Assembly: GCA_934096585.1 (NCBI GenBank)
Contig: CAKOMG010000002.1
Location: 71,277-135,276 of the forward strand
Direction of reading: 5' to 3'
Source: an uncultured Bacilli bacterium
GTDB taxonomy: Bacteria > Bacillota_I > Bacilli_A > ML615J-28 > CAG-698
DNA: 64,000 nucleotides
Shown: piece after piece, positions 2,885-37,451 of the stretch
Numbering within the stretch: the first letter of the stretch is position 1
Layout: each line of letters opens with the position of its first letter
The notes under the pieces: generated by a model
Database searches by the model: none
Seen by the model: the letters and a program-made list of their open reading frames with translations, nothing else
Told to the model about the DNA's origin: nothing
Made by a program: the position numbers and the translations under genes

Positions 2885-2896
2885 TAGGAGGTAGGT

Positions 2897-19852: not shown

Positions 19853-19861
19853 GGAGGAAGT

Positions 19862-20833: not shown

Positions 20834-21485
20834 AATCATGAAGTTGCTTATGGAAACTTTATTAATGGTGTTTATTTCAACGTGTATTACTTATTTATTG
20901 GGTTTACCACTTGGACTAATTCTATCAATTACTTCGAAAAAAGGAATTGCACCAAATAAAGTTGTTAATTTAATTTTGAGTACAATTGTAAATATATTGC
21001 GTTCAATTCCTTGTCTAATAGTTGTTGTTTTAACAATACCATTTGTCAGAGGATTATTTGGTGTAGGTACAGGAAAGTGGTATACAATTATAGTACCGCT
21101 AATAATCACGTCAGTTGGTTTTGTTGCAAGAATGATAGAACAATCTTTAAGAGAAGTAGATTATGGAAAAATAGAAGCAATTAAATCGTTAGGCGCCACA
21201 AATATGCAAATAGTTACAAAAGTATTAATACCGGAAGCTAGAGCATCATTAATAGGTGGAATTGCGGTTGTAATGGTTTCAATTATTGGCTATACATCGT
21301 TTGCATATAATATTGGCGCAGGAGGGATTATTGCGGAAATATGGCAGTTTTATTCAAAACATACAGGTAATTATTTAAACGAACCTGTATTTTGGATATT
21401 AATTGTTATTATTATAATTTTAGTTTGGACAATACAAGAGTTGGGATTATTTATTTCAAAAAAATTAGATAAAAGGAGATATTAA
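20820..21485 (+). CDS. metI: methionine ABC transporter permease
   Basis: 5-TM permease with an EAA-like loop (IEAIKSLGATNMQIVTKVLIPEA). Overlaps the metN stop. Confidence 0.85.
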   Translation: MNLSEIMKLLMETLLMVFISTCITYLLGLPLGLILSITSKKGIAPNKVVNLILSTIVNILRSIPCLIVVVLTIPFVRGLFGVGTGKWYTIIVPLIITSVGFVARMIEQSLREVDYGKIEAIKSLGATNMQIVTKVLIPEARASLIGGIAVVMVSIIGYTSFAYNIGAGGIIAEIWQFYSKHTGNYLNEPVFWILIVIIIILVWTIQELGLFISKKLDKRRY

Positions 21486-21486
21486 A

Positions 21487-22320
21487 ATGAAAAAAAGTTT
21501 AAAAGTTTTAGTTGTTTTTGTATTATTATTTATTTCGTTATTTACGCTTTGTAGTTGTAAAAATGATGAAAGTGTTATCCGTGTATGCGCTAGTGAATTA
21601 CCACACGCAGATATTTTGAATAATATAGTTAAAGAAAAGTTAAAAGAAAAAGGTTATACATTAGAAGTTACAGTGTTGGATTGGACAATGCAAAATGATT
21701 CAGTTGCTAACAAAGATTATGATGCTAATTACTTTCAACATATTCCATATTTGAACACATATCAAGGTAAAACAAAATTAAAGGCAACGTGTAAAGTTCA
21801 TTATGAACAATTAGGTATTTATTATGGTAAGAAAAATATTTCTCTTCTTGATGGAAAAACTTTTGCAATTTGTAATGATGAATCAAATGCAATTCGTGCA
21901 CTAAATTTACTATTTAGTAAAGGTGTAATAAGCGAACTTCCTGTGAATAATGATCATTTATCATTTAATGGTAATACTTGGACTGCAAGTAATGGCGTTA
22001 CTATTACTTTAATCGACGAAGGTCTTTTAGCAGCCGCGCTTAACGATTATGATTTTGCATGTCTACCTTGCAATACAGCTTATACAGGAAACATAAGCAA
22101 TGACAGAATTGTTGGGGTAGAAGATGATAAAGACCTTGTAGTCAAAAATGCTAATGTATTAGCTGTAAGAGAAGATGATTATAACAATGATTTGGCATAT
22201 AAAGAAAAAATTGATATTTTGACAAATATATTATTATCAAGTGATGTTTCTGACTATGTTAAAGCTAAATATGGACAAATTATTACTTGTAATGCAACAA
22301 CACAAATTGATTTAAGATAA
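21487..22320 (+). CDS. metQ: MetQ/NlpA-family substrate-binding lipoprotein
   Basis: Signal peptide with lipobox LCSC; NlpA-like periplasmic binding fold. Operon position after metNI. Confidence 0.8.
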   Translation: MKKSLKVLVVFVLLFISLFTLCSCKNDESVIRVCASELPHADILNNIVKEKLKEKGYTLEVTVLDWTMQNDSVANKDYDANYFQHIPYLNTYQGKTKLKATCKVHYEQLGIYYGKKNISLLDGKTFAICNDESNAIRALNLLFSKGVISELPVNNDHLSFNGNTWTASNGVTITLIDEGLLAAALNDYDFACLPCNTAYTGNISNDRIVGVEDDKDLVVKNANVLAVREDDYNNDLAYKEKIDILTNILLSSDVSDYVKAKYGQIITCNATTQIDLR

Positions 22321-23493: not shown

Positions 23494-24444
23494 TTATTTG
23501 TTATACTTATAAAAGCCTTCGCCTGAAGACATTCCAAGTTTTCCTTGATCAATGTATCCTTTTAACATTTTTTCCATACCTTTGAAGTTATATGGTGCTA
23601 AGAATGAAGGAATTTTAACATACATTGAAACAATATTATATGCTGTTTTTAATCCTACTGTATCTAAAATTTGGAATGGTCCTTTTGGCGCACCAGTGCC
23701 TAGTGTCCAAGCTTTATCAATGCTTTCTGGGTCAGAGATTCCATTTACATATAAATCCATGCCTGAGAAAAGAAGAGGTACTAGCATAGAGTTTAATAAA
23801 TAACCTGATTTTTCTTTTAAAACTGGTAGAGGAATCATGCGAATTTCTTTAGCAAAATTCATTACATCATCAAAATATTGTTTATCAGTTTTAGCTTGTG
23901 ACATTACTTCAGTCATATTGTTTTTCCAAATTGAGTTAGCAAAATGTAAAGATAAATATTTATCAGGTCTTCCTGTATATTTAGCAAATTTTGAAGGAAG
24001 AAGTGTTGAAGAATTTGTAACGATAACAGTTTTTTCTGGTAATAAACCAGCTAGTTTTTTATAAAAAGATATTTTTTCTTCAACGTTTTCTGCCATAGAT
24101 TCAATAATTAAATCAGCATCTTTAACTGCTTTTGCCATGTCTAATTCTAATTTTATTGATTTATAGGCATTTTCTGATTTCTGTAAACATTCATCTTTAT
24201 TAAATGTATCGTATTCAGCAATACCTCTGCACCAATTTGTTGGTGTTTGACCTTCTGGCGTTGACATTAGTTCAATTGTTTTTGCGTATACTTCTCTTAA
24301 ATTGTCAAGCTTTGGTTGAGTTCTGCCAACACTACTTTCGCTACGTAACCAAATAGTTACATCAAAACCGCAATATGCTGCTTGATAAGCAATCTGGCTT
24401 CCTAATACGCCGCCACCAGCAACTACTATTTTTTTAAATTCCAT
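23494..24444 (-). CDS. 3-hydroxyacyl-CoA / 3-hydroxybutyryl-CoA dehydrogenase family protein
   Basis: Rossmann 'KIVVAGGGVLGSQIAYQAA'. Middle 'NSSTLLPS' and C-terminal 'SSGEGFYKYNK' parallel Hbd ('NTSSL...GRKSGKGFYDY'). Confidence 0.75.
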   Translation of the reverse strand: MEFKKIVVAGGGVLGSQIAYQAAYCGFDVTIWLRSESSVGRTQPKLDNLREVYAKTIELMSTPEGQTPTNWCRGIAEYDTFNKDECLQKSENAYKSIKLELDMAKAVKDADLIIESMAENVEEKISFYKKLAGLLPEKTVIVTNSSTLLPSKFAKYTGRPDKYLSLHFANSIWKNNMTEVMSQAKTDKQYFDDVMNFAKEIRMIPLPVLKEKSGYLLNSMLVPLLFSGMDLYVNGISDPESIDKAWTLGTGAPKGPFQILDTVGLKTAYNIVSMYVKIPSFLAPYNFKGMEKMLKGYIDQGKLGMSSGEGFYKYNK

Positions 24445-24703
24445 AGTTATTAACCTCCTTATATAAAATTTAAAATCATTTTATTTTATCATATTTCCTT
24501 AATGTTTTCAACAAATATCATAAAAATAGAATGAACCAATTTTGTAAAAAAGGGTATAAAACTATATGTGTTTGTAATAATATTAATAATAAAGCAAATA
24601 ATAATTAAATAAAAACTTCCTATTTTTAGCATTTATTTATATTTAATTTATAAATGTTTTGTAAATAAAAATGCTTTCATAGATTAAGCGGTTTTAGCAA
24701 ATA

Positions 24704-24732
24704 TTGACTTTTCAGCATATTTAGTGTATAAT
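24704..24732 (+). promoter_or_regulatory. sigma-A promoter TTGACT-17-TATAAT for the lipoprotein-apbE-rnf operon
   Basis: TTGACT at 24704-24709, a 17-nt spacer, TATAAT at 24727-24732. Confidence 0.55.
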
Positions 24733-24785
24733 ATATATTGCTTGAAATGAAAGCTATAATCAAATTATGAAAGGAAGAATTTAAA

Positions 24786-25841
24786 ATGAAAAAATTTATT
24801 AAAGCTTTAACTTGCTTAGTTTTTGCTTTACTAGTTTGTGTTACATTAACAGCTTGTAAAAAATCTCCTGTTGATTACAAATTAGGTATGGGTGTAGAAG
24901 TAAGCTTGGCTTCATCAAAAGAAGCTGCTGGACAAGTTGATGCAACTGTTGCTGCAGTTTTATTAGACAAAGACGGAAAAATTGTTTCTTGCCGTTTAGA
25001 TGCTGTACAAAACAAAGCTACTTTAGCTGATGGTGTTTACACTGTAACTAACTTAAAGACTAAGAGAGAATTAGGTGATGATTATGGTATGGCTAAATAT
25101 GGCAAAAATATGGATATGAATGGTGATGGCGTTGTTAAAGAATGGTATGACCAAGCTAACGCTTTTGAAAACTATGTAGTTGGAATGACTGCTGAAGAAG
25201 TTAAAAATATTAAAACTTCTGCAAATGCTCATGGATATCAAATGGCTACTGATAAAGCATTATTAAATGCTGGATGTACAATTCAAATCACTGATTTCAT
25301 CGCTGCTGTTTACAAAGCTTGTACTGATGAACAAGGTCAAACTTTCCAAGAACAAGCAGATGCAGCATTAAAATTAGGTGTTACTGCTATATCAACTGTT
25401 GATTCATCTTCTAAAAATGCTACTGATGAAGCAGCAGGAGCATTAAATATGTATTCTGATTTCGCTGCTACAGTTGTTTTAAATGACAAAATTGTTGCTT
25501 GCTTAAATGATGCAATCCAACCTAAAATTGCATTTGATAAAAAAGGAGTTACTACTGCTACATTTAAAGATACTAAACGTTGCTTAAAAGAAGATTACAA
25601 TATGGCAAAATATGGTGCTGATAATAATGGTGACGGAATAGTTAAAGAATGGTATGAACAATCTGCTGCATTTTCTAAATATGTTTTAGGTATGACTGCT
25701 GATCAAGTTAAAAACTTAGAAACTAAAGAAGTTAATGCTCATCAAATTTCTACTGATGAAGTATTATTAAAAGCAGGATGCACTATGCAAATTACTGGTA
25801 TTAAAGCTGTAGTTGCAAAAGCTGTTGCAAATGCAAGATAA
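24786..25841 (+). CDS. lipoprotein built from two internal repeats of about 150 aa; unknown family; first gene of the ApbE/Rnf operon
   Basis: Lipobox LTAC. Repeat 1 '...DDYGMAKYGKNMDMNGDGVVKEWYDQANAFENYVVGMTAEEVKNIKT...LLNAGCTIQIT' and repeat 2 '...EDYNMAKYGADNNGDGIVKEWYEQSAAFSKYVLGMTADQVKNLETK...LLKAGCTMQIT'. No canonical S-G-A-T flavinylation motif. Confidence 0.6.
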   Translation: MKKFIKALTCLVFALLVCVTLTACKKSPVDYKLGMGVEVSLASSKEAAGQVDATVAAVLLDKDGKIVSCRLDAVQNKATLADGVYTVTNLKTKRELGDDYGMAKYGKNMDMNGDGVVKEWYDQANAFENYVVGMTAEEVKNIKTSANAHGYQMATDKALLNAGCTIQITDFIAAVYKACTDEQGQTFQEQADAALKLGVTAISTVDSSSKNATDEAAGALNMYSDFAATVVLNDKIVACLNDAIQPKIAFDKKGVTTATFKDTKRCLKEDYNMAKYGADNNGDGIVKEWYEQSAAFSKYVLGMTADQVKNLETKEVNAHQISTDEVLLKAGCTMQITGIKAVVAKAVANAR

Positions 25842-25859
25842 AATAATTGGACAAGCTAG

Positions 25860-26933
25860 ATGAATAACTTTTTGTCAAAGTGCAAAAAAATATTTGGTCT
25901 GTGCTTAATCTTCGGGCAACTCATTTGTTTAACGGGTTGCTCGAATTTTTTTCATAAGGAAATAAAACCTTGGGGTAAAATGTATTTCACTTTTTTTGAT
26001 ACTGTGAGTAATATTTATAGTTATGCCGGTGACGATGAAAATACATTTAATGAAAACTGTGATGTGGCCGCAAATATTTTAGAAGAATATCATAAACTCT
26101 TTGATATTTATCATGAATACTCAGGCGTTGTAAACTTGTGTACAGTAAATAAAAATGCTGGTGGTGAACCTCAAAAAGTAGATGATAAATTGATTACATT
26201 TCTTGAGTATACGAAGGAATTATATACTCTTACTAATGGAAAAATGAATGTTATGTTAGGTGCAGTTTTGAAGCCTTGGCATGATGCTCGAGAAGAAGCA
26301 TCGAACAATCCTCAAAATGCCAAGCTTCCGGATATGACTGTTTTACAAGAAGCATCAGAACATACAAGTATAGATTTACTGGAAATAGATAAAGTTAATA
26401 AAACGGTTAGAATTAGTGATGCTTTTGCATCAATTGATGTTGGAGCTGTTGGCAAGGGCTATGCAACTGAACAAGCTGCACAAGCATTAATTAAAAAAGG
26501 TTGTAGTAGTTATGTTTTAAATATCGGTGGGAATATTAGAATTATTGGAACAAAAGTTGATGGTAGTGGGTGGATTACAGGCATTAAAGATCCATTAAAC
26601 TCGGACTCTAGATATGCTATGTATCTTGAACTTGCTGATACATCATGTGTTACATCAGGAACTTATGAAAGATATTTTACAGTTAATAATAAAAAATATC
26701 ATCATATTATTGATTCAGAAACACTTATGCCAGCGGATTACTTTAGTTCAATATCTATTATTACTAAAGATAGTGGTTTAGCTGATGCTTTATCTACAGC
26801 TTTATTTTGTATGAGTTATGAAGAAGGTAAAGCTTTAATTGAAAAAATAAAAGATGTTGATGTGTTGTGGATTTATAATGATGGCACACAAAAATACACA
26901 TCGGGAATCAAACCTATAAAACAAGAAAAATAA
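25860..26933 (+). CDS. apbE: FAD:protein FMN transferase (ApbE/Ftp family), lipoprotein
   Basis: Lipobox LTGC. 'IDVGAVGKGYATE' is the DxGAxAKGY motif; the C-terminal 'ADALSTALF' is also present. Confidence 0.85.
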   Translation: MNNFLSKCKKIFGLCLIFGQLICLTGCSNFFHKEIKPWGKMYFTFFDTVSNIYSYAGDDENTFNENCDVAANILEEYHKLFDIYHEYSGVVNLCTVNKNAGGEPQKVDDKLITFLEYTKELYTLTNGKMNVMLGAVLKPWHDAREEASNNPQNAKLPDMTVLQEASEHTSIDLLEIDKVNKTVRISDAFASIDVGAVGKGYATEQAAQALIKKGCSSYVLNIGGNIRIIGTKVDGSGWITGIKDPLNSDSRYAMYLELADTSCVTSGTYERYFTVNNKKYHHIIDSETLMPADYFSSISIITKDSGLADALSTALFCMSYEEGKALIEKIKDVDVLWIYNDGTQKYTSGIKPIKQEK

Positions 26934-26947
26934 TTTAGGAGGAAATA

Positions 26948-28300
26948 ATGGGTTTTAGAAAAAATATTTCTTCATTACATTTGGCTCACAATAAAAATAC
27001 AGCAGGATGTACACCAGTAAGAATTGCCACTCCATCAGAAGTAATTCTTCCAATGGATATGCACTCTGGAAATGTTGCTGTACCAATTGTTAATGTTGGC
27101 GATTATGTTCGTGTTGGTCAATTAATTGCAAGAGAAGAAGGAAGATTTTCATCACCAGTTCATGCATCTGTATCTGGTACTGTTACTGAGATATCTCCTT
27201 TAAAACGTGCAAATGGTGATGTATTGGCAATTCATATTGCCAGTGATGGTAAGATGGAAAAAGATCCTAATTTAAAAGTTCCAGTAATGAATAACGCTGA
27301 TGAATTCTTACAAGCAGTTCGTGACAGTGGGTGTGTAGGCTTAGGTGGTGCGGCATTCCCAACTTGGGCAAAACTAAACGAAATGAGAAATGGTGAATAT
27401 ACTGTTGACACGGTTTTAGTTAACGCTGCTGAATGTGAACCATATATTACAAGCGACCACCGTATGATGATTGATCATCCAGATTTAATTGTCAAGGGAG
27501 TAGAATATTTAAGAACATATTTAAGTGACTATTTAAAAGATGCAAAATTTATGATTTGCATTGAAAAAAATAAACCAGATGCCATTGCAAAAATGAAAGA
27601 AGTTTTTGCTGGAAAAGATTATGTAGTTATTCATGAATTAAAAACAATTTATCCACAAGGAGCAAAACAAGTAATGTTATATAATGCAACAGGACGTGTT
27701 GCAATAGCAGGAAAGAGATTCCCATCATTCCATGCTATCATTATTAATGTTTCATCACTTGCAAAGACTGCTGAATACTTATCAACTGGTATGCCACTTG
27801 TTGAAAGAATTGTAACGGTTGATGGCCCTGCAGTTGCTAATCCAATGAATTTAATAGCTCCAATTGGAACAAAGATTAGTTGCTTGTTAAAAGAAACAGG
27901 ATTAAAATCAGAACCTGGAAAAGTAGTAATTGGAGGACCAATGAATGGACATGCAGTTGTATCAATAGATGATCCAATAGTAAAAGTTTCAAACTGTGTA
28001 TTAGCATTTGATGAAAAATCAAGTATATTACCAGAACCAAGTGTTTGTATTCACTGTGGACGTTGCATAAATCATTGTCCAATTAAGATTAGTGTTCCAG
28101 CTGTTGAAACAGCATTAAATGAACCAAATGAAGATATTCGTGCACAAAAATTAATTGCAACAGGAGTTCGTCAATGTGTTGATTGTGCGAGTTGCTCATA
28201 TATTTGCCCTGCTCACAGACACTTACTTGAAGCTAATCAAAAAGCAAAGAGATTCTTAAAAAATTATGAAAGAGCTCAAAAAGAAGGAGGTAATAAATAA
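26948..28300 (+). CDS. rnfC: Rnf complex subunit C
   Basis: RBS AGGAGG. NADH/FMN-binding 'GLGGAAFPT'. Two 4Fe-4S motifs, CIHCGRCINHCP and CVDCASCSYICP. Confidence 0.9.
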   Translation: MGFRKNISSLHLAHNKNTAGCTPVRIATPSEVILPMDMHSGNVAVPIVNVGDYVRVGQLIAREEGRFSSPVHASVSGTVTEISPLKRANGDVLAIHIASDGKMEKDPNLKVPVMNNADEFLQAVRDSGCVGLGGAAFPTWAKLNEMRNGEYTVDTVLVNAAECEPYITSDHRMMIDHPDLIVKGVEYLRTYLSDYLKDAKFMICIEKNKPDAIAKMKEVFAGKDYVVIHELKTIYPQGAKQVMLYNATGRVAIAGKRFPSFHAIIINVSSLAKTAEYLSTGMPLVERIVTVDGPAVANPMNLIAPIGTKISCLLKETGLKSEPGKVVIGGPMNGHAVVSIDDPIVKVSNCVLAFDEKSSILPEPSVCIHCGRCINHCPIKISVPAVETALNEPNEDIRAQKLIATGVRQCVDCASCSYICPAHRHLLEANQKAKRFLKNYERAQKEGGNK

Positions 28301-29232
28301 TGGAAAATTTACATGTTTCTAATGCACCTCATATTTGTACTCATAATTCAACAAGAAATGTGATGTTAGATGTTTTAATTGCTTTATTACCAGCAACAGT
28401 TGCTTCAATAGTATTGTTTGGTCTTAAAGCTCTATGGATAATTCTTGCATGTGTTGCAAGTGCTGTTTTGAGCGAATTTATTTTTAATTTATGTGTTAAG
28501 AAAAAACAAACAATTGGCGATTTAAGTGCAGTTGTTACAGGCTTAATTTTAGCACTAAACTTAAGCACAAAAGTTGCTATTTGGCAATGTGTAATTGGAA
28601 GTGTATTTGCAATTATCGTTGTTAAATGTTTATTTGGTGGGTTAGGAAAAAACATTTGTAACCCCGCAATTGCCGCTCGTGTATTCTTGCTGTTAACATT
28701 CGCATCAGTTGCTGGTGGTGGACAACCTGTTAATCCAGAATTTGTTTCTAGTGCCACTCCACTTGCATTTTTAAATACTGGAGTTAATGCAACAGGTGCT
28801 CCAACATTGTTACAATTACTACTTGGAACACATGGCGGAACTATTGGTGAGACTTGTGCAGTTGCATTATTAGTAGGATATATTTACTTAGTAATCAGAA
28901 ATGTAATTAAGTGGTATGTACCTCTAGCATTTGTGTTAACAGTATTTGTTTGCTATTTAATTTTTGATCATAGCGTTACATATGCCTTATCACATGTATT
29001 AGCTGGTGGTTTATTATTTGGTGCTATTTATATGGCTACTGATTATGTAACTACTCCAATTAGTAATTTAGGCAAAGTAGTGTTCTGCGTAGGTTGTGGA
29101 CTTATTACATTCGCAATTAGAAAATGGGGCTCTTACCCAGAAGGTGTTTCAATTTCAATTTTGGTAATGAATTTATTAGTACCTCTAATTGAAAGAATTA
29201 CAGTTCCAAGAACATTAGGTGGAATTAGATAG
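28300..29232 (+). CDS. rnfD: Rnf complex subunit D
   Basis: Polytopic NqrB/RnfD-like protein; overlaps the rnfC stop. Confidence 0.85.
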   Translation: MENLHVSNAPHICTHNSTRNVMLDVLIALLPATVASIVLFGLKALWIILACVASAVLSEFIFNLCVKKKQTIGDLSAVVTGLILALNLSTKVAIWQCVIGSVFAIIVVKCLFGGLGKNICNPAIAARVFLLLTFASVAGGGQPVNPEFVSSATPLAFLNTGVNATGAPTLLQLLLGTHGGTIGETCAVALLVGYIYLVIRNVIKWYVPLAFVLTVFVCYLIFDHSVTYALSHVLAGGLLFGAIYMATDYVTTPISNLGKVVFCVGCGLITFAIRKWGSYPEGVSISILVMNLLVPLIERITVPRTLGGIR

Positions 29233-29243
29233 TAAGGAGGACA

Positions 29244-30533
29244 ATGAAAATGAAAAAAGAATATATAAAATCTTCTTTAATTATTGTAGTCGTTGTTTTA
29301 GTATTTGGCGGATTAATGTTTGCCTTAAACTTCCTTACAGGACCAATAATTGAAGAAAATAATCAAGGTGCTGAACTTGCACCATTAAAAGAAGTTATGC
29401 CTGATGGTGTTAAATTTGAACTTATTTATGACAAAGATAATGCTTCAGCATCAACTTTAACTGGTGTTAAAGATCATGTATCAAAAGTGTATAAAGAAAC
29501 AACAGATAAAGGATACGTATTTCGTTGTGAAACAACTTCACAATATTCAAAAAATCCAATGATTTTTACTGTTGGTATTACAATTGATGGAAAAATTTGT
29601 GGAGTTAAAGTTAATGAATATCATGAATCACTTGACTTTAAAGATTATCCACAAAACTATGTTGGCAAAGATTCAACTCTTGCTGATGTAGGTGTATTTA
29701 GTGGCGTTACATTTTCTTCAAATGCTTTTAAAGAAGCAATGGAAGAAGGATTTGATGCTTTAATTAAAAACAATCTAATTAAAGAAGCTGTTAAAACAGA
29801 TGATCAAATTTTATCAGAATTAATCCTAACAAAACATACAGGACTTGCATCAAATGGTGTATTAAAATGTTCAACAATTGAAGCAAGTGGAAATATTGTT
29901 AAAGGATATAAAGGAGATAATGGTTCAGGATTTGCCTTAATCATGAAAGATAATGATAAAATGTATTTAGTTGTAACTAATCCATTTGGTGGAGCATGTG
30001 TATATGATGTTGAAGGAAAAGATGTTACTTCTAGTCATGAAACATTAGTAGCAGATGCAAAAGCATATCAATTACAAAATGGTACAGATTCTAAAGATTC
30101 ATTAGTTACAAAAGTTGGAAATATAATGAATAGCACTATTACCGATGCTCAAGTTCAAGAACTTAACATATTTAGTTCTGTTGTTGCAAATGTTAAGTTT
30201 ACATTAGATGGTGTAACTTACTATGCATTCAACGCTAAAAACTTTAGTTTTGATTCAAATGTAATGAATATATTCTTTATCCTTGATGAAAATGGAGCTA
30301 TCGTTAAAATGACTGCTGATGCATTTGTATTCGAAACAGACTATTTCACGACATTAGATCCAAATTGGAATGCTTCAAATTATATTAGTGGCTTTACAGG
30401 CTTAACTAATGAAACATTTGATGGAACTCAAGCTGTAATTGGTGGAGCTACTATGTCAACAAATGCAATGAAACAAGCAACAAATGATGTTTTTGCAGCA
30501 TTTAAATTAGCAAAAACTGGAGGTAATAAATAA
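29244..30533 (+). CDS. rnfG: Rnf complex subunit G, about twice normal length, with two FMN-attachment-like motifs
   Basis: N-terminal TM; 'FSGVTFSSNAFKEA' near aa 150 and 'VIGGATMSTNAMKQA' near aa 400, both resembling the [SG]GAT[IM]S[ST] flavinylation site. Confidence 0.8.
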   Translation: MKMKKEYIKSSLIIVVVVLVFGGLMFALNFLTGPIIEENNQGAELAPLKEVMPDGVKFELIYDKDNASASTLTGVKDHVSKVYKETTDKGYVFRCETTSQYSKNPMIFTVGITIDGKICGVKVNEYHESLDFKDYPQNYVGKDSTLADVGVFSGVTFSSNAFKEAMEEGFDALIKNNLIKEAVKTDDQILSELILTKHTGLASNGVLKCSTIEASGNIVKGYKGDNGSGFALIMKDNDKMYLVVTNPFGGACVYDVEGKDVTSSHETLVADAKAYQLQNGTDSKDSLVTKVGNIMNSTITDAQVQELNIFSSVVANVKFTLDGVTYYAFNAKNFSFDSNVMNIFFILDENGAIVKMTADAFVFETDYFTTLDPNWNASNYISGFTGLTNETFDGTQAVIGGATMSTNAMKQATNDVFAAFKLAKTGGNK

Positions 30534-31138
30534 TGATGAAATTAAAAAAATTACTTTTAAGAGGAACACCATCATTCTTAATCCCATTAGGAGCAGGATT
30601 CGTAATGGCTTCAAGTGCTGATATTCGTGCAGCATTAGGAATGGGTGGAGCAGTAATTGTTATTTTGTTACTTACATCAATTGTTGTTTCCGCAATTAAA
30701 AATATTGTCCCTAATCGTGCTAAAGTTCCAACATACATTTTAATTGTTACAGGATTTACATCTTTAGTTAACATGTTTATGTCCGCATATTTTCCAAATG
30801 TAGTGGATATGTTAGGTGTTCATCTTGCATGTCTTGCTGTAAGTGCAGTTAACTTTAGAGAAGCTAATGAAGTAGCATGCATGGAAAAAGAAGGAACTTC
30901 AATTATCTCTGCATTGCTTACTGGTGCATTCTTCTTAGTAATTATGGTTGTGTGTGCACTATTCCGTGAAGTACTTGGAAATGGATCTTTCTTTGGATTA
31001 AAAATAGAATTTCTACAAGATTATAAAATTCAAACTCTAGTTGGTGCTTTTGGTGGATACTTAGTTCTTGCCATAGTGCTTGCAGTTATTAGAAAAATAG
31101 GAGAAAAATTTGAAACAAAAGAGGAGGTAGTTGAATAA
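30533..31138 (+). CDS. rnfE: Rnf complex subunit E
   Basis: RnfE/NqrD-like 6-TM protein; overlaps the rnfG stop. Confidence 0.85.
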   Translation: MMKLKKLLLRGTPSFLIPLGAGFVMASSADIRAALGMGGAVIVILLLTSIVVSAIKNIVPNRAKVPTYILIVTGFTSLVNMFMSAYFPNVVDMLGVHLACLAVSAVNFREANEVACMEKEGTSIISALLTGAFFLVIMVVCALFREVLGNGSFFGLKIEFLQDYKIQTLVGAFGGYLVLAIVLAVIRKIGEKFETKEEVVE

Positions 31139-31686
31139 TGAGTTTAAAATTAATTTTTGGTATTTTACTTGCTGGTATTTTATCAAACAACTACGCAGTA
31201 CTTAAGTTTTTAGGAACTGGTGCCGTAATTGAAAATAATCGTTCAATTAAAAGATCAGTCATAATCGGACTTGGAACTACTCTTGTTATGTTAGTAACAA
31301 CTTTAATTACTTGGCCAATAAATAAGTATCTTCTTCAAAAAGTATCTTATTTACAAACACTTGTATTTGTTCTTGTTGTATTACTTGTTGTTGAATTAGT
31401 TCATTTAATTGCCAAAAAGAAACTAGAAGGATTCTGTCAAGTTGATTTTTTAACATTTGCAATTAATGGAGCCGTTTTAGGACTATGTATAAATGGAACA
31501 ACATTACCATTTGGTGAAGCTATTGTAACATCAATTGGTGTTGGTATTGGTTTAATGGTTACAATGGTTGTATTTAGTACTTTACATGAAAGAATTGATG
31601 AAACTGCTGTTCCTAAAGCCTTTAGAGGAGTTCCTATTAGTTTACTTATTGCGGGAATGATGGCACTTGCCTTCTTAGCGTTTTAA
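31138..31686 (+). CDS. rnfA: Rnf complex subunit A
   Basis: RnfA/NqrE-like 6-TM protein; overlaps the rnfE stop. Confidence 0.85.
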   Translation: MSLKLIFGILLAGILSNNYAVLKFLGTGAVIENNRSIKRSVIIGLGTTLVMLVTTLITWPINKYLLQKVSYLQTLVFVLVVLLVVELVHLIAKKKLEGFCQVDFLTFAINGAVLGLCINGTTLPFGEAIVTSIGVGIGLMVTMVVFSTLHERIDETAVPKAFRGVPISLLIAGMMALAFLAF

Positions 31687-32033
31687 TGAAAAAAAGAGAT
31701 ATTTTAATTATATGTGGAATATTAGTGTTCGCCGGCTTATTACTTTTGATTATTAATTTAACTAAAAAACCGGGAGCTGGCGTTATAGTAAGAATTAATG
31801 GTGTAGAAGTTGCCAAATACTCATTTGATAATGAAGGAACATACGAGTTAAACGGGGGCACTAATATTTTAATTATAAAAGACAATGAGGCATGGCTCGA
31901 GTCAGCAACATGCAAAGACAAAATTTGTGTTAAAGAAGGAAAAATAAGCAAAGAAGGAGAAACAATTACATGTCTTCCTAATAAACTAACAGTTACAGTT
32001 TATGGAAGAGATAGTTTTGTGGAAATAGAATGA
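31686..32033 (+). CDS. small membrane-anchored protein, NusG-domain-II-like (DUF1312-type); not rnfB
   Basis: N-terminal TM, then a beta-rich region with Cys pairs (CKDKIC...TITC). Too short and lacking ferredoxin clusters, so it is not RnfB. The family call is a recollection. Confidence 0.4.
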   Translation: MKKRDILIICGILVFAGLLLLIINLTKKPGAGVIVRINGVEVAKYSFDNEGTYELNGGTNILIIKDNEAWLESATCKDKICVKEGKISKEGETITCLPNKLTVTVYGRDSFVEIE

Positions 32034-32533
32034 AACCAATAAAGAAAATAGCATACTTAAGTATATTTGTCGCTTTAGCAATGATTCTTTCTTTCATTGA
32101 AAGTCAAATCCCAACATTTCTACCTGTTCCAGGAATTAAGTTAGGATTACCTAATATGGCAATTATTTTCTTGCTATATCGTTTTAGTTGGAAAGAAGCC
32201 GCTATTGTTAATTTGATTCGTATATTGCTTGTTAGTTGGCTATTTGGTTCTGTCTATAGTTTATTATATAGTCTAGCTGGTGGCATTTTAAGCTTATTAG
32301 CTATGGCATTACTTAAAAAAACAAATTGGTTATCAACTATTACAGTTAGCGTAATTGGTGGTGTTTGCCATAATATAGGTCAAATTATTACTGCTTGCTT
32401 TGTCACTTCCACAAAAGAAATTGTTGGATACTTGCCTGTTTTATTAATTACTGGTACAGTCGCAGGCATAGTAATTGGTATTATAAGTGCACAATTAATT
32501 AAAAAATTTGACACAATAGGTTTATCAAAATGA
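32030..32533 (+). CDS. Gx transporter family protein (heptaprenyl diphosphate synthase component I-like fold)
   Basis: 5-TM protein '...PGIKLGLPNMAIIFLLYRFSWKEAAIVNLIRILLVSWLFGS...'. Overlaps the preceding ORF. Confidence 0.55.
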   Translation: MKPIKKIAYLSIFVALAMILSFIESQIPTFLPVPGIKLGLPNMAIIFLLYRFSWKEAAIVNLIRILLVSWLFGSVYSLLYSLAGGILSLLAMALLKKTNWLSTITVSVIGGVCHNIGQIITACFVTSTKEIVGYLPVLLITGTVAGIVIGIISAQLIKKFDTIGLSK

Positions 32534-32560
32534 TTATAGGTTCCTATAATCATTTTTTTA
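32532..32560 (+). terminator. intrinsic terminator ending the apbE-rnf operon
   Basis: GATTATAGG / CCTATAATC stem followed by CATTTTTTT. Confidence 0.55.
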
Positions 32561-32637
32561 TATTATTGTAAATAAATGATTGAAAAATTGTTCAAAATAG
32601 TATATAATAGATATGATTGATATTATTGGAGATTAAT

Positions 32638-33522
32638 ATGAAAGTGTGGAATGTTTTAATTTTGGTTAATGAACACAAAGACCATAATTTGAAAATCACA
32701 AAAGAAGTAATTACATTTTTAAATAATAACAATTGTCAAGTTTATATCGAAGAAGAAATTTCATCAAAAGTATCCGAGGCAAAAATTTTAAATAAAGATT
32801 CAGTTGTTGATTTTGCTCTTGTTCTTGGTGGTGATGGAACTTTACTTAATGGCCTTCATAAATATGTTGAAAAGGATTTTCCATATTTTGGAATTAATTT
32901 AGGTAGAGTTGGATGCTTATTAGAAGCAAATGCCACTAATTACAAAGATAAAATCTCTAGTATTTTGCATGATAAATATTTTATTGAAAAGCGAAATACT
33001 TTAGAATATGTTGTTAAAAATAATGAAAATACCTATAAAGGAATAGCTTTTAATGAAGTAGCTTTAGAACGTGGCAAATTATTTAAAATGTTATTGATTA
33101 ATATGTATATTAATGGAAACAATAAAACTTCTTTTTATGCAGATGGAGTAATTGTTGCTACATCAACAGGTTCAAGTGCCTTTAGTTTATCTAGTGGCGG
33201 ACCACTCCTATTGCCAAGTGCAAAAAATTTTGTAATTACGCCACTTTGCCCGCAACTTCGAAATATTACATCTTTAGTAGTGAATGATACAGATGTTATT
33301 TCCATTGATATTAAGGATTTACAAGTTCGAGAATCTTATAAAGACAATAAACCAATTGTAACAATTGATGGACGAATAATGATTGACATAGATGAAAATA
33401 GCAATCTTACCATTACCAAGAGTCCTAAAATTTTAAAAATCATTAAAGTTAATGGACAAGAATCTTACTTTGAACCTACATTCAAGGTAGCGATGTCAAA
33501 TCAAAACTTATTCAATAATTAA
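32638..33522 (+). CDS. nadK: NAD+ kinase
   Basis: 'GGDGTLL' and 'GINLGRVGCL' motifs. Start set to ATG 32638 with GGAG upstream. Confidence 0.85.
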   Translation: MKVWNVLILVNEHKDHNLKITKEVITFLNNNNCQVYIEEEISSKVSEAKILNKDSVVDFALVLGGDGTLLNGLHKYVEKDFPYFGINLGRVGCLLEANATNYKDKISSILHDKYFIEKRNTLEYVVKNNENTYKGIAFNEVALERGKLFKMLLINMYINGNNKTSFYADGVIVATSTGSSAFSLSSGGPLLLPSAKNFVITPLCPQLRNITSLVVNDTDVISIDIKDLQVRESYKDNKPIVTIDGRIMIDIDENSNLTITKSPKILKIIKVNGQESYFEPTFKVAMSNQNLFNN

Positions 33523-33537
33523 AAAAGGAGTAGAAAA

Positions 33538-34395
33538 ATGGACAAGTTTAAATTAAATCAAATTGTTTTAAAAGAAGAACTAAACCCTACTGTTACAAAG
33601 ATGGAAGTTTATTCTCCTTTTATTGCTAAAAAAGCTGAACCTGGTGAATTCATTATCTTAAGAGTTGATGAAGTCGGTGAAAGAATCCCACTAACTATTG
33701 CTGGATATGATAGAGAAAAAGGAACAGTTACTATTATTTTCCAAATCGTAGGTGGAACAACAATGTTATTAAACGGCTTAAATGAAGGAGATCAAATTCA
33801 TGATTTTGTAGGACCTTTAGGAAAAGCTACTGAAACAGAAGGATTAAAGAAAGTTGCTGTTGTTGGTGGTGGTGTAGGCTGTGCTATAGCTTTACCAGTT
33901 GCTAAAAAATTACATGACAATGGTTGTGTTGTACATTCTGTTGTAGGTTTCAGAAATAAAGATTTAGTTATTTTAGAAAAAGAATTCACTGAAGCCAGTG
34001 ATAAATTATGCTTAATGACTGATGATGGTAGTTATGGAACAAAAGGATTAGTTACTAATGCTTTAGAAGAATTAATCAAAGCAGGAAATGAATATGATGA
34101 AGTAATTGCTATCGGACCATTAATCATGATGAAGTTCGTTACAATGCTTACTAAAAAATATAACATTAAAACAGTTGTAAGTATGAACCCTATTATGATT
34201 GACGGAACTGGTATGTGCGGTTGCTGCCGATTAACAGTAGGTGGAAAAACAAAATTTGCTTGCGTTGATGGACCAGACTTTGATGCATTTGAAGTAGATT
34301 TTGATGAAGCTATTTCTAGATCAAGAAGTTATACAGAATTTGAAGCAAAAGCAAGAGAAAAATCTTGTAATCTATTAAAGAAGGCGGTTAAATAA
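33538..34395 (+). CDS. nfnA: NADH-dependent reduced ferredoxin:NADP+ oxidoreductase subunit A (sulfide dehydrogenase beta / PyrK-like)
   Basis: FAD/NAD-binding PyrK-like fold ('VAVVGGGVGCAIALPVA'). C-terminal 2Fe-2S Cys cluster 'GTGMCGCCRLTVGGKTKFACVDGP'. Confidence 0.8.
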   Translation: MDKFKLNQIVLKEELNPTVTKMEVYSPFIAKKAEPGEFIILRVDEVGERIPLTIAGYDREKGTVTIIFQIVGGTTMLLNGLNEGDQIHDFVGPLGKATETEGLKKVAVVGGGVGCAIALPVAKKLHDNGCVVHSVVGFRNKDLVILEKEFTEASDKLCLMTDDGSYGTKGLVTNALEELIKAGNEYDEVIAIGPLIMMKFVTMLTKKYNIKTVVSMNPIMIDGTGMCGCCRLTVGGKTKFACVDGPDFDAFEVDFDEAISRSRSYTEFEAKAREKSCNLLKKAVK

Positions 34396-34397
34396 TT

Positions 34398-35786
34398 ATG
34401 CCAAATATGTCATTAAAAAAGAATCCAATGCCATCTCTTGATGCAAATGTAAGAAATAAAAATTTTGAAGAAGTTGCTTTAGGTTATACTGAAGCTATGG
34501 CAATTGATGAAGCAGAAAGATGTTTACATTGTAAAACTAAACCTTGTGTTGGCGGATGTCCAGTAGGAATCAATATTCCTGATTTTATTGCTCAAATCAA
34601 AGATCATAATTTTGAAGAAGCTTATAATATCATTTACAAGAGCAGTGCTTTACCAGCTGTTTGTGGACGTGTATGTCCTCAAGAAAGCCAATGTGAAGGA
34701 AAATGCGTAAGAGGAATTAAAGGTGAACCAGTAGGAATTGGTAGACTTGAAAGATTTGTTGCTGATTATCATAATGCTCATAATACAAAAGTTGCTGATA
34801 AACCAGTATCGAATGGTCATAAAGTAGCAGTTATCGGATCAGGTCCTTCAGGATTAACATGTGCTGGAAAACTTGCACTTGAAGGATATGAAGTAACAAT
34901 TTTTGAAGCCTTACATATGGCCGGTGGAGTTTTAGTATATGGTATTCCAGAATTCCGTCTTCCAAAATCAATTGTTAAAAAAGAAATTGATAATCTAATT
35001 GCTTTAGGTGTTAAAGTAGAAACAAATATGGTTATTGGTAAAGTTATATCAATCGACGAACTAATTGAAGAATATCATTTCGAAGCCATCTTTATTGGTA
35101 GTGGTGCTGGTCTTCCTAAATTTATGGGAATTCCTGGTGAAAACTTAAAAGGTGTATTCAGTGCTAATGAAATTTTAACTCGTGTTAATTTAATGAAAGC
35201 ATATCAATCTGATTCTACTACTCCAGTTAAACAAAATAAAAATGTTGCTGTAGTTGGTGGTGGTAACGTTGCAATGGATGCTGCTAGATGTGCAAAACGT
35301 TTAGGTGCTGAAAATGTATATATCGTATATCGTCGTAGCTTAGATGAATTACCAGCAAGAAAAGAAGAAGTTGAACATGCAATGGAAGAAGGAATCATCT
35401 TCAAAGTATTAACTAACCCAACAGAATTAATTGGTGATGAAACTGGTACAGTAAGCCAAATGAAATGTGTTGAAATGGAATTAGGAGAAGCTGATGCATC
35501 AGGAAGAAGAAAACCGGTTGTAAAGGCAGATTCTGAATTTGTTATGGATGTTGACTGTGTAATTATGGCTTTAGGTACTTCACCTAACCCATTAATTAAG
35601 AATACAACTAAAGGATTAGATACTGAAAAATGGGGCGGAATCATTGCTAATGAAGATGGTTTAACTTCAAGAGAAGGTATTTATGCTGGTGGAGATGCCG
35701 TAACAGGTGCAGCTACTGTTATTCTTGCAATGGGTGCTGGAAAGAAAGCAGCAGAAGCAATTGATAACTATTTAAAGAATAAGTAA
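34398..35786 (+). CDS. nfnB: NfnB / glutamate synthase small-chain-like NADPH oxidoreductase
   Basis: N-terminal 2x[4Fe-4S] Cys clusters (CLHCKTKPCVGGCPV; CGRVCPQESQCEGKC). Two Rossmann motifs, 'VAVIGSGPSGLTCA' and 'VAVVGGGNVAMD'. Confidence 0.8.
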   Translation: MPNMSLKKNPMPSLDANVRNKNFEEVALGYTEAMAIDEAERCLHCKTKPCVGGCPVGINIPDFIAQIKDHNFEEAYNIIYKSSALPAVCGRVCPQESQCEGKCVRGIKGEPVGIGRLERFVADYHNAHNTKVADKPVSNGHKVAVIGSGPSGLTCAGKLALEGYEVTIFEALHMAGGVLVYGIPEFRLPKSIVKKEIDNLIALGVKVETNMVIGKVISIDELIEEYHFEAIFIGSGAGLPKFMGIPGENLKGVFSANEILTRVNLMKAYQSDSTTPVKQNKNVAVVGGGNVAMDAARCAKRLGAENVYIVYRRSLDELPARKEEVEHAMEEGIIFKVLTNPTELIGDETGTVSQMKCVEMELGEADASGRRKPVVKADSEFVMDVDCVIMALGTSPNPLIKNTTKGLDTEKWGGIIANEDGLTSREGIYAGGDAVTGAATVILAMGAGKKAAEAIDNYLKNK

Positions 35787-35794
35787 AGTTATAA

Positions 35795-35828
35795 ATGAAC
35801 TAATCATTATGGTTAGTTCATTTTTTTG
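35795..35828 (+). terminator. intrinsic terminator after nfnB
   Basis: ATGAACTAA-(9 nt)-TTAGTTCAT followed by T7. Confidence 0.65.
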
Positions 35829-35974
35829 TTATAACTATTATAATTATAGTTTTTTATTAAAATTAGTTCAAAATTTTCCCTAGAATCCTATTATTAAAAT
35901 TGCACGTTTAATTAAAGGCGTTTAAACATTGAAAGACTACAGTCTAAAATATGGCTTCACCTGGATTATCAGCC

Positions 35975-36003
35975 TTGACAAACAAAGAAAATTATGTTAA
36001 TAT
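35975..36003 (+). promoter_or_regulatory. sigma-A promoter TTGACA-17-TAATAT for the MATE transporter gene
   Basis: TTGACA at 35975-35980, a 17-nt spacer, TAATAT at 35998-36003. Confidence 0.55.
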
Positions 36004-36061
36004 ATAAATATACATCGGAGGACTAATTGTCGTAACAATTTTTATAGTCAGATGAGATGAC

Positions 36062-36095
36062 GAGTGAGCTCGGTATAATGAGTTCACTCATTTTT
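36062..36095 (+). promoter_or_regulatory. terminator-like hairpin plus T-run inside the approximately 105-nt 5' leader of the MATE gene, with an overlapping alternative stem; candidate attenuator or riboswitch expression platform
   Basis: ATGAG-TTCA-CTCAT plus TTTTT at 36078-36095. An alternative pairing, GAGTGA (36062-36067) with TCACTC (36084-36089), competes for the same 3' arm. The hairpin ends 6 nt before the RBS AGGAGG. Confidence 0.35.
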
Positions 36096-36113
36096 GTTAT
36101 ATAGGAGGAAAAA

Positions 36114-37451
36114 ATGGATTTACTAACATGTGATGTTAAAAAAACGTATTTAAAGTTTTTCTTTGCGACTTTTGGAAGTGCATTAATTGCTAGTATCTAC
36201 GCACTTGTTGATATGGCAATGGTAGGACAATATTATGGCCCTATAGGGACATCAGCTATTGCGATTGTTTCACCAATTTGGAATATTATTTATAGTTTAG
36301 GATTACTTATTGGTATTGGTGCTTCCATTTTATATAGCGTATGTAAAGGAGAAAAGAAAGATAATCCAAATATTTACTTTTCTTCTGCAATAGTTTATGG
36401 AATAATTGTTTCAATTTTACTTTATATAGTAATTTGGTTAAAAGAAGATAGTTTATTAAAGTTTTTTGGGGGTACAGATGAAACAATCCCTTTAGCTAAA
36501 AAATATATGTTACCGATTAAATATTCAATTCCCTTATTTGTATTTGCACAAATACTTTCTTCATTTTTACGAAATGATAATGCTCCACGTTTGGCCACAA
36601 TTGGGGTAGTAATTGGTGGTGTGTTTAATATTTTTGGTGATTATCTTTTGGTATTCACGTTTGATTTAGGAATTATAGGTGCAGGAATTGCAACGTGCCT
36701 TTGTTCTTTTGTTAGTCTAATTGTTATGTTAACACATTTTTTAAATAAAAATAATTCTCTAGCGGTTTTTATTAATGGCGAAGTATTTAAACCCATTTTC
36801 AAAATATTTATTAATGGATTTCCTTCATTTATCATTGACTTATCAATGGGCATTTTAACAATAATTTATAATAGGCAAATAATTAAATATTTTGATAATG
36901 ATGTTTTATCAATTTATGGAATCATTATCAATATTAGTACACTTGTGCAATGTTGTTCTTATGGAATTGGTGAAGCAAGTCAACCACTAGTATCACAAAA
37001 TTTTGGTGCAAAAAAGTATGATCGAATCAATAAAGTATTAAAATATTTAATAGTAACATCATTTATTGTTGGGGGAGTGTGGGTAGCAATATCACTTGCT
37101 ATGCCAAATGTCCTAGTTAGAATATTTATGAAGCCAACAGATAGAGTTTTAATGTTAGCTCCAAAAATTATTCGCTTGTATTCAATTTCCTTTATTTTGC
37201 TACCTTTAAATGTTGCTTCTATGTTTTATTTTCAATCAATTTTAAAATCAAAAATATCCCTTATTATTTCTTTAGCAAGAGGCGTATTTATAAGTGGAAT
37301 ACTTTTATTAGTTCTACCACTAATTAATAAAGAATTGATTTGGATAACTATGGTCTTAACAGAAACAATTGTTAGTATATTTGTATTTTTAATTCTTTTT
37401 ATTAGCGAAAAGCAGTTCAAAAAACAAATTGACAAAGAAGCACTATTGTAA
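36114..37451 (+). CDS. MATE family efflux transporter
   Basis: 12-TM protein with a MATE-like N-terminus (...FFFATFGSALIASIYALVDMAMVGQYYGPIGTSAIAI...). Confidence 0.75.
   Translation: MDLLTCDVKKTYLKFFFATFGSALIASIYALVDMAMVGQYYGPIGTSAIAIVSPIWNIIYSLGLLIGIGASILYSVCKGEKKDNPNIYFSSAIVYGIIVSILLYIVIWLKEDSLLKFFGGTDETIPLAKKYMLPIKYSIPLFVFAQILSSFLRNDNAPRLATIGVVIGGVFNIFGDYLLVFTFDLGIIGAGIATCLCSFVSLIVMLTHFLNKNNSLAVFINGEVFKPIFKIFINGFPSFIIDLSMGILTIIYNRQIIKYFDNDVLSIYGIIINISTLVQCCSYGIGEASQPLVSQNFGAKKYDRINKVLKYLIVTSFIVGGVWVAISLAMPNVLVRIFMKPTDRVLMLAPKIIRLYSISFILLPLNVASMFYFQSILKSKISLIISLARGVFISGILLLVLPLINKELIWITMVLTETIVSIFVFLILFISEKQFKKQIDKEALL

Follow-up and report, generated by a model that had tools for sequence, protein, structure and literature searches.

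Does an rnf operon that lacks rnfB encode an ordinary ferredoxin:NAD+ oxidoreductase whose missing subunit lies elsewhere in the genome, or an electron-transfer complex that is wired differently? This question is raised by an operon in a 64,000-nucleotide stretch of DNA from an uncultured Bacilli bacterium (contig CAKOMG010000002.1, positions 71,277 to 135,276), hereafter the window. Its nine genes encode, in this order, a duplicated lipoprotein, ApbE, RnfC, RnfD, an RnfG of 429 amino acids (aa), RnfE, RnfA, a NusG_II-domain protein and a PF07456 protein. An original prediction, made from the sequence of the window, proposed a rewired Rnf with an outward electron relay through RnfG and the lipoprotein. 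Our analysis lends support to this putative rewiring, which agrees with the absence of rnfB, the loss of cluster ligands in RnfA and RnfE, the two flavin domains predicted in RnfG, and the likeness of the lipoprotein repeats to the FMN_bind fold together with their fusions to FMN_bind domains. We regard it as reasonably probable that the operon encodes an Rnf-derived complex, which would take electrons from NADH in the cytoplasm and deliver them, in one direction and by covalently bound flavins alone, to the outer side of the membrane.

Loss of the [2Fe-2S] ligands in RnfA and RnfE

In canonical Rnf and Nqr complexes, an intramembrane [2Fe-2S] cluster is ligated by two Cys each from RnfA and RnfE and links RnfB or NqrF, its electron donor, to RnfG or NqrC, its acceptor (PMC12174285). 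The corresponding positions in the window proteins were set by alignment to four solved complexes (9eri, 7zc6, 8ahx and 7xk3). In RnfA, G28 replaces the Cys of FLG-x-C-PF and G111 replaces that of T-N-C-AVLG, and in RnfE, G22 and A105 stand in place of the Cys of LG-x-C-P and V-N-C-IILG, respectively. The same loss runs through the family survey, in which Cys occurs at the RnfA ligand positions in 3 of 63 sequences and at the second RnfE ligand in 3 of 65, the three Cys-keeping copies belonging to the clusters in loci L057 and L026 and to the second rnf of locus L060. None of the RnfB-less cassettes has Cys at either RnfA position or at the second RnfE ligand. By comparison, all four Cys are kept in each of the four RnfB-containing clusters (L026, L057, L087 and L088). 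Neither RnfB nor the four-ligand set is present in any of ~58 distinct cassettes.

L060 holds a canonical rnf beside a cassette of the window's type. This second rnf has the order rnfC-D-G-E-A, an RnfG of 209 aa with one SGAT and all four Cys, and it runs off the end of the locus, with the rnfB region beyond. The occurrence of both in one locus argues that the two systems are not redundant. From these alignments, the ferredoxin branch appears to have been deleted rather than to be encoded elsewhere, and whether an rnfB exists elsewhere matters little, since electrons from RnfB would find no cluster in the cassette and a separate canonical rnf is present in L060. A different donor or acceptor at the position of the B subunit, which the original prediction had offered as a candidate, is disfavored in that the whole B branch appears deleted and not re-partnered.

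The NADH branch, judged by the RnfC cofactor motifs and the RnfD flavinylation Thr, is intact. RnfC keeps the GLGGAAFPT motif and both copies of CxxCxxCxxxCP across 70 homologs, and the commonest variants of the RnfD flavinylation site across 69 homologs all conform to [AST][GST][AS]TPL.

Conservation of the cassette and absence of rnfB

A scan with a profile of the lipoprotein over one genome per GTDB species gave 150 matching stretches, from which we retained 80 loci. In this comparison of gene neighborhoods, which had been proposed as a check, the nine-gene order is kept in ~55 loci with enough flanking sequence, and shorter contigs show the same order until the contig ends. The rnfG gene in conserved cassettes encodes 410–445 aa, and the surroundings are unrelated between loci while the order of the nine genes stays. 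The carriers are Bacilli (RFN20/Acholeplasmataceae-like) and Clostridia: the closest relatives are labeled Coprobacillus sp. CAG:698, uncultured Bacilli and Anaeroplasmatales, and the more distant ones are Christensenellaceae, Oscillospiraceae, Faecousia, Vescimonas and other Clostridia metagenome-assembled genomes (MAGs). The synteny recurs in many gut metagenome assemblies, and an RnfG 99% identical to that of the window is found in an NCBI MAG labeled 'Acholeplasmataceae bacterium'. Median identity to the window proteins ranges from 42% (RnfG) to 71% (RnfC), indicating that all nine genes are under purifying selection. A pseudogenized or decaying rnf was considered and is ruled out by open reading frames (ORFs) that are intact and conserved in ~55 genomes.

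As had been claimed, the 64-kb window contains no rnfB-like ORF, and the absence extends to the 10 kb around each of the ~55 cassettes, in which no RnfB-like ORF was found. When the ORFs of 82 loci were searched for at least two ferredoxin-type Cys motifs, the sole RnfB was that of L057, from another cluster type. RnfB in these initial 82 loci is confined to L057 and L026, both with other cluster types, and the assignment was confirmed by Pfam (PF04060). The absence of rnfB is a conserved trait of the cassette.

Tandem flavin domains predicted in RnfG

Two sequences in RnfG had been proposed to fit the flavinylation site [SG]GAT[IM]S[ST]. One of them, 'GGATMST' at aa 400–406, fits exactly, whereas 'SGVTFSS' at aa 153–159 deviates, with V for A and F for I/M. 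In published mutagenesis, a change of Ala to Val at position –1 still allows ~50% flavinylation, and loss of the upstream Asp has a minor effect. Thr is kept at both sites in all but one or two of 62 distinct homologs, with the consensus [SA]G[ASCVT]-T-[FY]SS at site 1 and [GTSA]A-T-[MLVI][TS][ST] at site 2. A chance match at the C terminus is ruled out, as that motif is conserved in nearly all homologs.

The expectation of two FMN_bind domains holds in part at the level of Pfam, which sees one FMN_bind domain only. The second emerges from an hhalign alignment between the N-terminal domain and the C-terminal third (97.6% probability, E = 5e-12, motifs in register) and from the conservation of its Thr. 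The AlphaFold2 (AF2) model of RnfG (pLDDT 89.6) comprises a transmembrane (TM) helix followed by N-terminal, middle and C-terminal domains (Table 1), and among known structures it resembles RnfG and NqrC subunits most closely. RnfG has the single TM helix and the FMN_bind domain with flavinylation-site Thr that characterize the Rnf type, and a subfamily of ~640 aa carries three motifs. RnfG thus has two FMN_bind domains and is predicted to be a true tandem-flavin protein.

The middle domain of RnfG shows a sheet-plus-helices fold with a nearly invariant 'D-V-T' ahead of a helix. That it represents a degenerate third FMN_bind-like domain is conceivable, but hhalign gives the match a probability of only 12%.

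The duplicated lipoprotein as a candidate ApbE substrate

The lipoprotein had been described as two repeats of an unrecognized family, and this description stands: the internal duplication has 52% identity (E = 2e-36), and the protein has no match in Pfam or NCBIfam, nor by phmmer among PDB sequences. A substrate-binding lipoprotein of a known family is ruled out, as no such match was found. A permissive Pfam scan (E <= 10) of 39 family members gave no FMN_bind signal, and only weak Dockerin, Excalibur and EF-hand matches at a DxNxDG loop. The lipoprotein founds a large unnamed family, with at least 1843 matches in a 90%-clustered collection; an exhaustive HMMER search gave 1529 clusters (50% identity), of which 478 reach E <= 1e-30.

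Thr and Ser are the two residues that ApbE can modify. Each lipoprotein repeat closes with A-G-C-[T/S]-[I/M]-Q directly before its last helix. Among 244 instances of this motif, from two-, three- and four-repeat proteins, the Cys is always present and the next residue is Thr in 227 and Ser in 17. By comparison with D-x-x-[S/T]-G-A-[S/T], the motif occupies an equivalent position and keeps the Gly and the Thr/Ser, with Cys in place of Ala and the Asp absent. Alignment of the repeat with the RnfG domains by hhalign is co-linear and places AGC-T on the flavinylated Thr, at sub-threshold probability (24% at best, 5–6% when forced to full length). In several RnfG homologs, moreover, the genuine site 1 itself reads 'AGCT'.

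Genomic context and domain fusions are consistent with a flavin function. In the loci examined, apbE is the next gene wherever the sequence extends beyond the repeat-protein gene, and this adjacency holds in the rnf-less loci L008, L071 and L090, the last of which encodes a four-repeat protein. Some relatives combine the repeat with other domains in a single polypeptide: it follows three canonical PF04205 domains in P0370, two in P0445 and a Redoxin/AhpC-TSA domain in P0384, and it is also fused to surface modules such as Big_2, Flg_new and dockerin. The repeats likely adopt a predicted FMN_bind-like fold, covalent flavinylation at Thr165 and Thr333 is on balance to be expected, and the lipoprotein probably represents a new kind of flavinylation substrate.

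Each repeat of the window protein also has a DxNxDGxVKE loop (25113–25142 and 25620–25649), which resembles the calcium loops of Excalibur, EF-hand and dockerin domains through the weak Pfam matches. This loop is replaced in repeat 2 of many homologs.

EetA and EetB homologs

The original prediction stated, with moderate confidence, that the Gx transporter and NusG-II genes recur near apbE. This is correct: the two correspond to EetB and EetA, published as an ApbE-associated FAD-export pair. In Listeria, an energy-coupling factor (ECF)-type FAD exporter, with EetB (PF07456) as its substrate-binding subunit, feeds the extracytosolic ApbE homolog FmnB (PMC9973259). In the same work, eetB colocalizes with apbE in 2169 genomes, with eetA in 3328 and with Rnf in 572 Clostridia genomes, and Data Set S1 of Rivera-Lugo et al. 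2023 labels PF07009 as EetA (PMC9973259). By these family assignments, the last two genes of the operon encode the predicted EetA/EetB pair that supplies ApbE.

Sister rnfDGEAB clusters

Clusters of the order rnfD-rnfG(long)-rnfE-rnfA-rnfB in L057, L087 and L088 (Table 1) combine an rnfG of 405–418 aa with an rnfB of 272 aa and all four Fe-S Cys. A motif search finds two flavinylation motifs in the RnfG of L057 and L087 and one in that of L088. No rnfC lies within 10 kb of these clusters. L057 and L088 have a deletion of the RnfD flavinylation loop, and among 120 related RnfDs, 27 do not have the motif. In L057, the sister cluster is the divergent neighbor of a lipoprotein-apbE-eetA-eetB-nfnAB group. 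There thus seem to be two half-Rnf designs, a putative NADH-fed one (RnfC/RnfD) and a putative ferredoxin-fed one (RnfB, RnfA/RnfE), both of which end in a multi-FMN RnfG. Among the comparative arguments, the sister system speaks most strongly for the extracytosolic flavin chain as the output and for the sufficiency of one membrane-crossing branch.

Proposed electron path and alternatives

In the path that we propose, EetB and EetA, together with ECF energizing subunits encoded elsewhere, would export FAD as inferred from the Listeria homolog, and the lipoprotein ApbE would attach FMN to the conserved motifs of RnfD (Thr153) and RnfG (Thr156 and Thr403) as well as, by prediction, to Thr165 and Thr333 of the duplicated lipoprotein. 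NADH would be oxidized at RnfC, with its FMN and two [4Fe-4S] clusters, and the electrons would pass to RnfD and across the membrane, then to the FMN of the N-terminal and next to that of the C-terminal domain of RnfG, and on to the two lipoprotein flavins, which would reduce an external acceptor encoded outside the operon. RnfA and RnfE, conserved though the cluster is gone, probably remain as a scaffold or an ion path.

Several points weigh against this path. RnfA and RnfE are still conserved, at ~60% median identity, and they hold conserved non-canonical Cys (RnfA C100 and C117 in 53 of 63 sequences, RnfE C141 in 51 of 65). The GC[T/S] motif of the lipoprotein is without the canonical Ala and Asp, and its status as an ApbE substrate is a prediction only. 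The operon contains no terminal-acceptor gene, and the ECF-T (FmnA) and ECF-A partners of EetB were not found in it. Furthermore, the search for rnfB covered the 64-kb window and 10 kb around the cassettes of relatives, all carriers are uncultured MAGs, and the outward flow of electrons, like any coupling to ions, is our inference.

The conserved Cys of RnfA and RnfE could mark a role beyond scaffolding, such as a metal or redox site that has been relocated and that a cytoplasmic protein other than RnfB would serve, for instance NfnAB, whose genes lie beside the cassette in about a third of loci. Little probability attaches to this counterpoint, since the three Cys appear from the alignments and the inverted topology (PMC12174285) to lie at different depths and on different membrane sides, which makes a single cluster unlikely. 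Moreover, neither NfnA nor NfnB is anchored in the membrane, and most loci lack nfnAB. The retention of RnfA/RnfE without their cluster could mean an ion-coupling role, and canonical Rnf reactions are reversible, so that electrons from an extracytosolic donor might flow inward through the lipoprotein and RnfG to reduce NAD+ at RnfC, with an ion gradient through RnfA/RnfE as the possible driving force. However, no hydrogenase, formate dehydrogenase or other donor-oxidizing enzyme is linked to the cassette, and we consider inward flow quite improbable. The potentials of protein-bound FMN usually lie above that of NAD+/NADH, which would make such a flow uphill. In addition, published models tie the ion-coupled conformational switch to the redox state of the very [2Fe-2S] cluster that is missing here (PMC12174285).

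An ordinary ferredoxin:NAD+ oxidoreductase with its rnfB elsewhere in the genome would fit RnfC and RnfD scores above the NCBIfam cut-offs, the ferredoxin use by the organism that the downstream NfnAB shows, and the scope of the rnfB search given above. It is nevertheless highly improbable in view of the four Cys ligands that are missing in the window and kept in every RnfB cluster, of an rnfB absence conserved over ~55 loci, and of the separate canonical rnf that L060 has besides its cassette. A further alternative leaves the Rnf part as proposed and makes the lipoprotein a non-covalent flavin binder or scavenger, or a factor that helps ApbE or the FAD exporter to assemble. The tightest linkage of the lipoprotein is indeed to apbE and not to rnf, its motif departs from the canonical [S/T]GA[S/T], it has no significant sequence match to FMN_bind, and an FMN_bind-like fold could equally hold free flavin. 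What makes this alternative unlikely is the occurrence of one motif per repeat with exclusively Thr or Ser in all 244 instances, three- and four-repeat proteins included, the serial fusion to FMN_bind or Redoxin domains and surface-display modules, which is the pattern of a multi-flavinylated wire, and the presence of 'AGCT' at genuine flavinylation sites of RnfG.

Comparison with known systems

Rnf and Nqr are semicircular redox pumps, and the intramembrane [2Fe-2S] cluster is regarded as the core of their coupling. The canonical Rnf (RnfCDGEAB; 7ZC6, 9ERI and 8AHX) shares with the cassette the order of RnfC, D, G, E and A, the Fe-S/FMN motifs of RnfC and the flavinylation Thr of RnfD and RnfG, and ApbE and EetA/EetB stand alongside it in many clostridial rnf clusters. 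The cassette is distinct from it in having no RnfB, four replaced [2Fe-2S] ligands, a doubled RnfG with an additional middle domain and an added lipoprotein, and its predicted path runs one way instead of forming a semicircle. As the cassette lacks two defining features of Rnf, the four-Cys site of RnfA/RnfE and RnfB, we describe it as Rnf-derived and not as Rnf. Na+-NQR, like the cassette, is an Rnf descendant that lost rnfB (PMC12174285). However, Na+-NQR put NqrF in place of RnfB and kept the [2Fe-2S] cluster, whereas the cassette replaced nothing and lost the ligands.

Multi-flavinylated RnfG in RNF clusters has been noted before, with the extra flavin as the route by which extracytosolic acceptors are reached (Méheust et al. 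2021, eLife, PMC8238504). Those clusters were defined by RnfB (K03616), and the path was pictured as a branch added to a complete Rnf (PMC8238504). The cassette shares with them at least two FMN domains in RnfG, but it is without RnfB and its ferredoxin branch appears deleted. Since Pfam detects one of the two FMN_bind domains, the cassette probably escapes the multi-flavinylated count of that survey, and without RnfB it escapes its RNF definition. A one-way path from NAD(P)H to an extracytosolic FMN subunit, by a single route through the membrane, has been proposed for the NQR/RNF-like two-subunit systems (PMC8238504; Huang et al. 2024, PMC11334425) as it is here for the cassette. In those systems, which occur mainly in Actinobacteria and the candidate phyla radiation (CPR), an RnfD-like protein without the RnfD flavinylation site is fused to an NqrF-type NAD-binding domain (PF00175), and RnfC, RnfA and RnfE are absent. 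By comparison, the RnfD of the cassette (310 aa) has PF03116 only and is predicted to be flavinylatable, and separate RnfC, RnfE and RnfA are kept.

The Listeria-type extracellular electron transfer (EET) system (Ndh2, demethylmenaquinone (DMK), EetA/EetB, FmnA, FmnB and PplA) shares with the cassette an ApbE/FmnB lipoprotein, EetA/EetB and a two-repeat surface lipoprotein, which in the cassette would be the outermost carrier and the PplA analogue. The membrane crossing differs, as the cassette would use RnfC/RnfD/RnfG instead of Ndh2 and demethylmenaquinone and would be quinone-independent; Ndh2 and DmkA/DmkB are not among the nine operon genes, all of which are assigned to other families. 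Furthermore, the cassette lipoprotein, as compared with PplA, is not PF04205 and has GC[T/S] instead of GA[T/S].

The Rnf subunits, ApbE and EetA/EetB are known already as parts, as is outward transfer via multi-flavinylated RnfG. In the open-access literature, we found no description of an RnfB-less Rnf with ligand-less RnfA/RnfE, of the AGC[T/S] family as an ApbE substrate, or of an RnfC-less system. As published surveys define RNF by RnfB, such systems are probably missing from flavinylation-based censuses of electron transfer. If the proposed path is correct, either half of the Rnf electron path can operate without the other, and the cassette offers a natural test of the role of RnfA/RnfE apart from electron carriage. 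It would also constitute a quinone-independent EET route in abundant uncultured gut Christensenellaceae, Oscillospiraceae and RFN20/Acholeplasmataceae-like Bacilli, and the lipoprotein family, as an ApbE substrate, would extend the known recognition motif of ApbE.

Possible links to oxidant defense

In the rnf-less loci L008 (9920–13533), L071 (10010–13488) and L090 (12070–16968), a gene for a flavodiiron protein follows apbE, accompanied in L090 by one for rubredoxin, and the Redoxin/AhpC-TSA-fused paralog P0384 is near the L090 repeat-protein locus. The flanks of cassettes include desulfoferrodoxin in 5 loci and a Crp/Fnr regulator in 9 loci. Clustering of the flanks for extra partners revealed no others that recur, beyond nfnAB and these few O2-defense genes; its output is dominated by spurious antisense ORFs of high-GC genomes. 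The Redoxin fusions, the flavodiiron/rubredoxin operons and the desulfoferrodoxin and Crp/Fnr neighbors point weakly to the reduction of oxidants or thiol peroxidases at the cell surface.

A fuller picture, which we offer tentatively and hold to be possible though doubtful, is that of a quinone- and cytochrome-free, all-flavin conduit in uncultured gut Firmicutes. It would consist of RnfC/RnfD, redox-dead RnfA/RnfE, at least five FMNs and an AGC[T/S] carrier, whose flavin-plus-cysteine center would reduce external oxidants or proteins of the thiol peroxidase type in extracytosolic oxidative-stress defense or respiration, with the ferredoxin-fed rnfDGEAB mirror serving the same output.

Organization of the operon

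The coordinates of the operon and related features are listed in Table 1. The nine ORFs lie where the original prediction had placed them, on the + strand (24786–32533), tightly packed with gaps of –4 to +18 nt in DNA of ~28% G+C. Families were assigned by Pfam and NCBIfam searches of the window proteins. The predicted ApbE lipoprotein is borne out by its lipobox and by a match to PF02424 that spans almost the whole profile, and RnfE and RnfA match PF02508 but score far under the TIGRFAM cut-offs. The proposed sigma-A promoter coincides with the joint-best consensus match within 24400–36200 and is to be read as a consensus match only. An Rfam search found no riboswitch upstream of the operon.

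Downstream, a second promoter-like site (32580–32608) precedes nadK-nfnAB, and the sole good terminator-like site (35793–35823) follows nfnB, with none between eetB and nadK. As nfnAB adjoins the cassette in ~22 of ~60 loci from different lineages, this neighborhood suggests a link to the balancing of pyridine nucleotides and ferredoxin.

Table 1 Features of the operon in the window and of related clusters
Feature	Coordinates	Strand	Basis or remark
Promoter-like site TTGACT-17-TATAAT	24704–24732	+	Upstream of operon; consensus match only, 11/12
Lipoprotein, 351 aa, lipobox LTAC24, two homologous repeats	24786–25841	+	Predicted new type of ApbE substrate
Lipoprotein repeat 1, aa 28–182	24867–25331	+	Ends in AGC[T/S][I/M]Q motif, 25269–25286
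Lipoprotein repeat 2, aa 194–351	25365–25838	+	AGC[T/S][I/M]Q motif, 25773–25790
ApbE-type FAD:protein FMN transferase, lipoprotein, lipobox LTGC27	25860–26933	+	PF02424, E = 6e-62
RnfC, NADH/FMN-binding subunit, two [4Fe-4S] motifs	26948–28300	+	TIGR01945, 358 bits vs cut-off 246
RnfD	28300–29232	+	TIGR01946, 275 bits vs cut-off 207
RnfD flavinylation site SSAT153PL	28747–28764	+
Long RnfG, 429 aa, TM helix and N, middle and C domains	29244–30533	+	Pfam FMN_bind match aa 105–168
Site SGVT156 of RnfG N-terminal FMN_bind domain (aa 58–175)	29700–29720	+
RnfG middle domain, aa 186–295	29799–30128	+	Type unassigned
Site GGAT403 of RnfG C-terminal divergent FMN_bind domain (aa 313–425)	30441–30461	+
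RnfE homolog without both canonical [2Fe-2S] Cys	30533–31138	+	PF02508; aligned to 9eri_E, 7zc6_E, 8ahx_E, 7xk3_D
RnfE ligand position G22 in LGAGFV	30587–30604	+
RnfE ligand position A105 in VSAVNF	30839–30856	+
RnfA homolog without both canonical [2Fe-2S] Cys	31138–31686	+	PF02508; aligned to 9eri_A, 7zc6_A, 8ahx_A, 7xk3_E
RnfA ligand position G28 in FLGTGAV	31207–31227	+
RnfA ligand position G111 in INGAVLG	31462–31482	+
EetA homolog, NusG_II-domain protein, 115 aa, one N-terminal TM helix	31686–32033	+	PF07009, E = 4e-27
EetB homolog, 167 aa, 'Gx transporter', ECF-S-like subunit of FAD exporter	32030–32533	+	PF07456, E = 1e-40
NAD kinase	32638–33522	+	Pfam; possibly associated
NfnA/PyrK-like	33538–34395	+	Pfam; possibly associated
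NfnB/GltD-like	34398–35786	+	Pfam; possibly associated
Sister cluster rnfD-rnfG(long)-rnfE-rnfA-rnfB	L057:5446–9662	-
Sister cluster, same order	L087:10001–14265	+
Sister cluster, same order	L088:10001–14372	+

Other features of the window

A T-box leader (RF00230, 120 bits; 19595–19830, + strand) stands ahead of metN/metI/metQ-like ABC transporter genes (19808–22320), an ordinary arrangement. An RHS/toxin-tip-like ORF ('YYCNSRYYDSEIRRWISIDD') at 2090–3340 is followed by small ORFs, which may be immunity genes. A giant surface protein of 1836 aa is encoded at 12749–18259; Flg_new repeats occur in the longer gene call of L083. A lipoprotein of 796 aa (58583–60973, + strand) contains three tandem His/Cys-rich repeats of ~70 aa ('HTFDSTKWEKDENNHWHPATCGH...'), and its C-terminal part reads like domains II and III of EF-Tu, which is odd for a surface protein.

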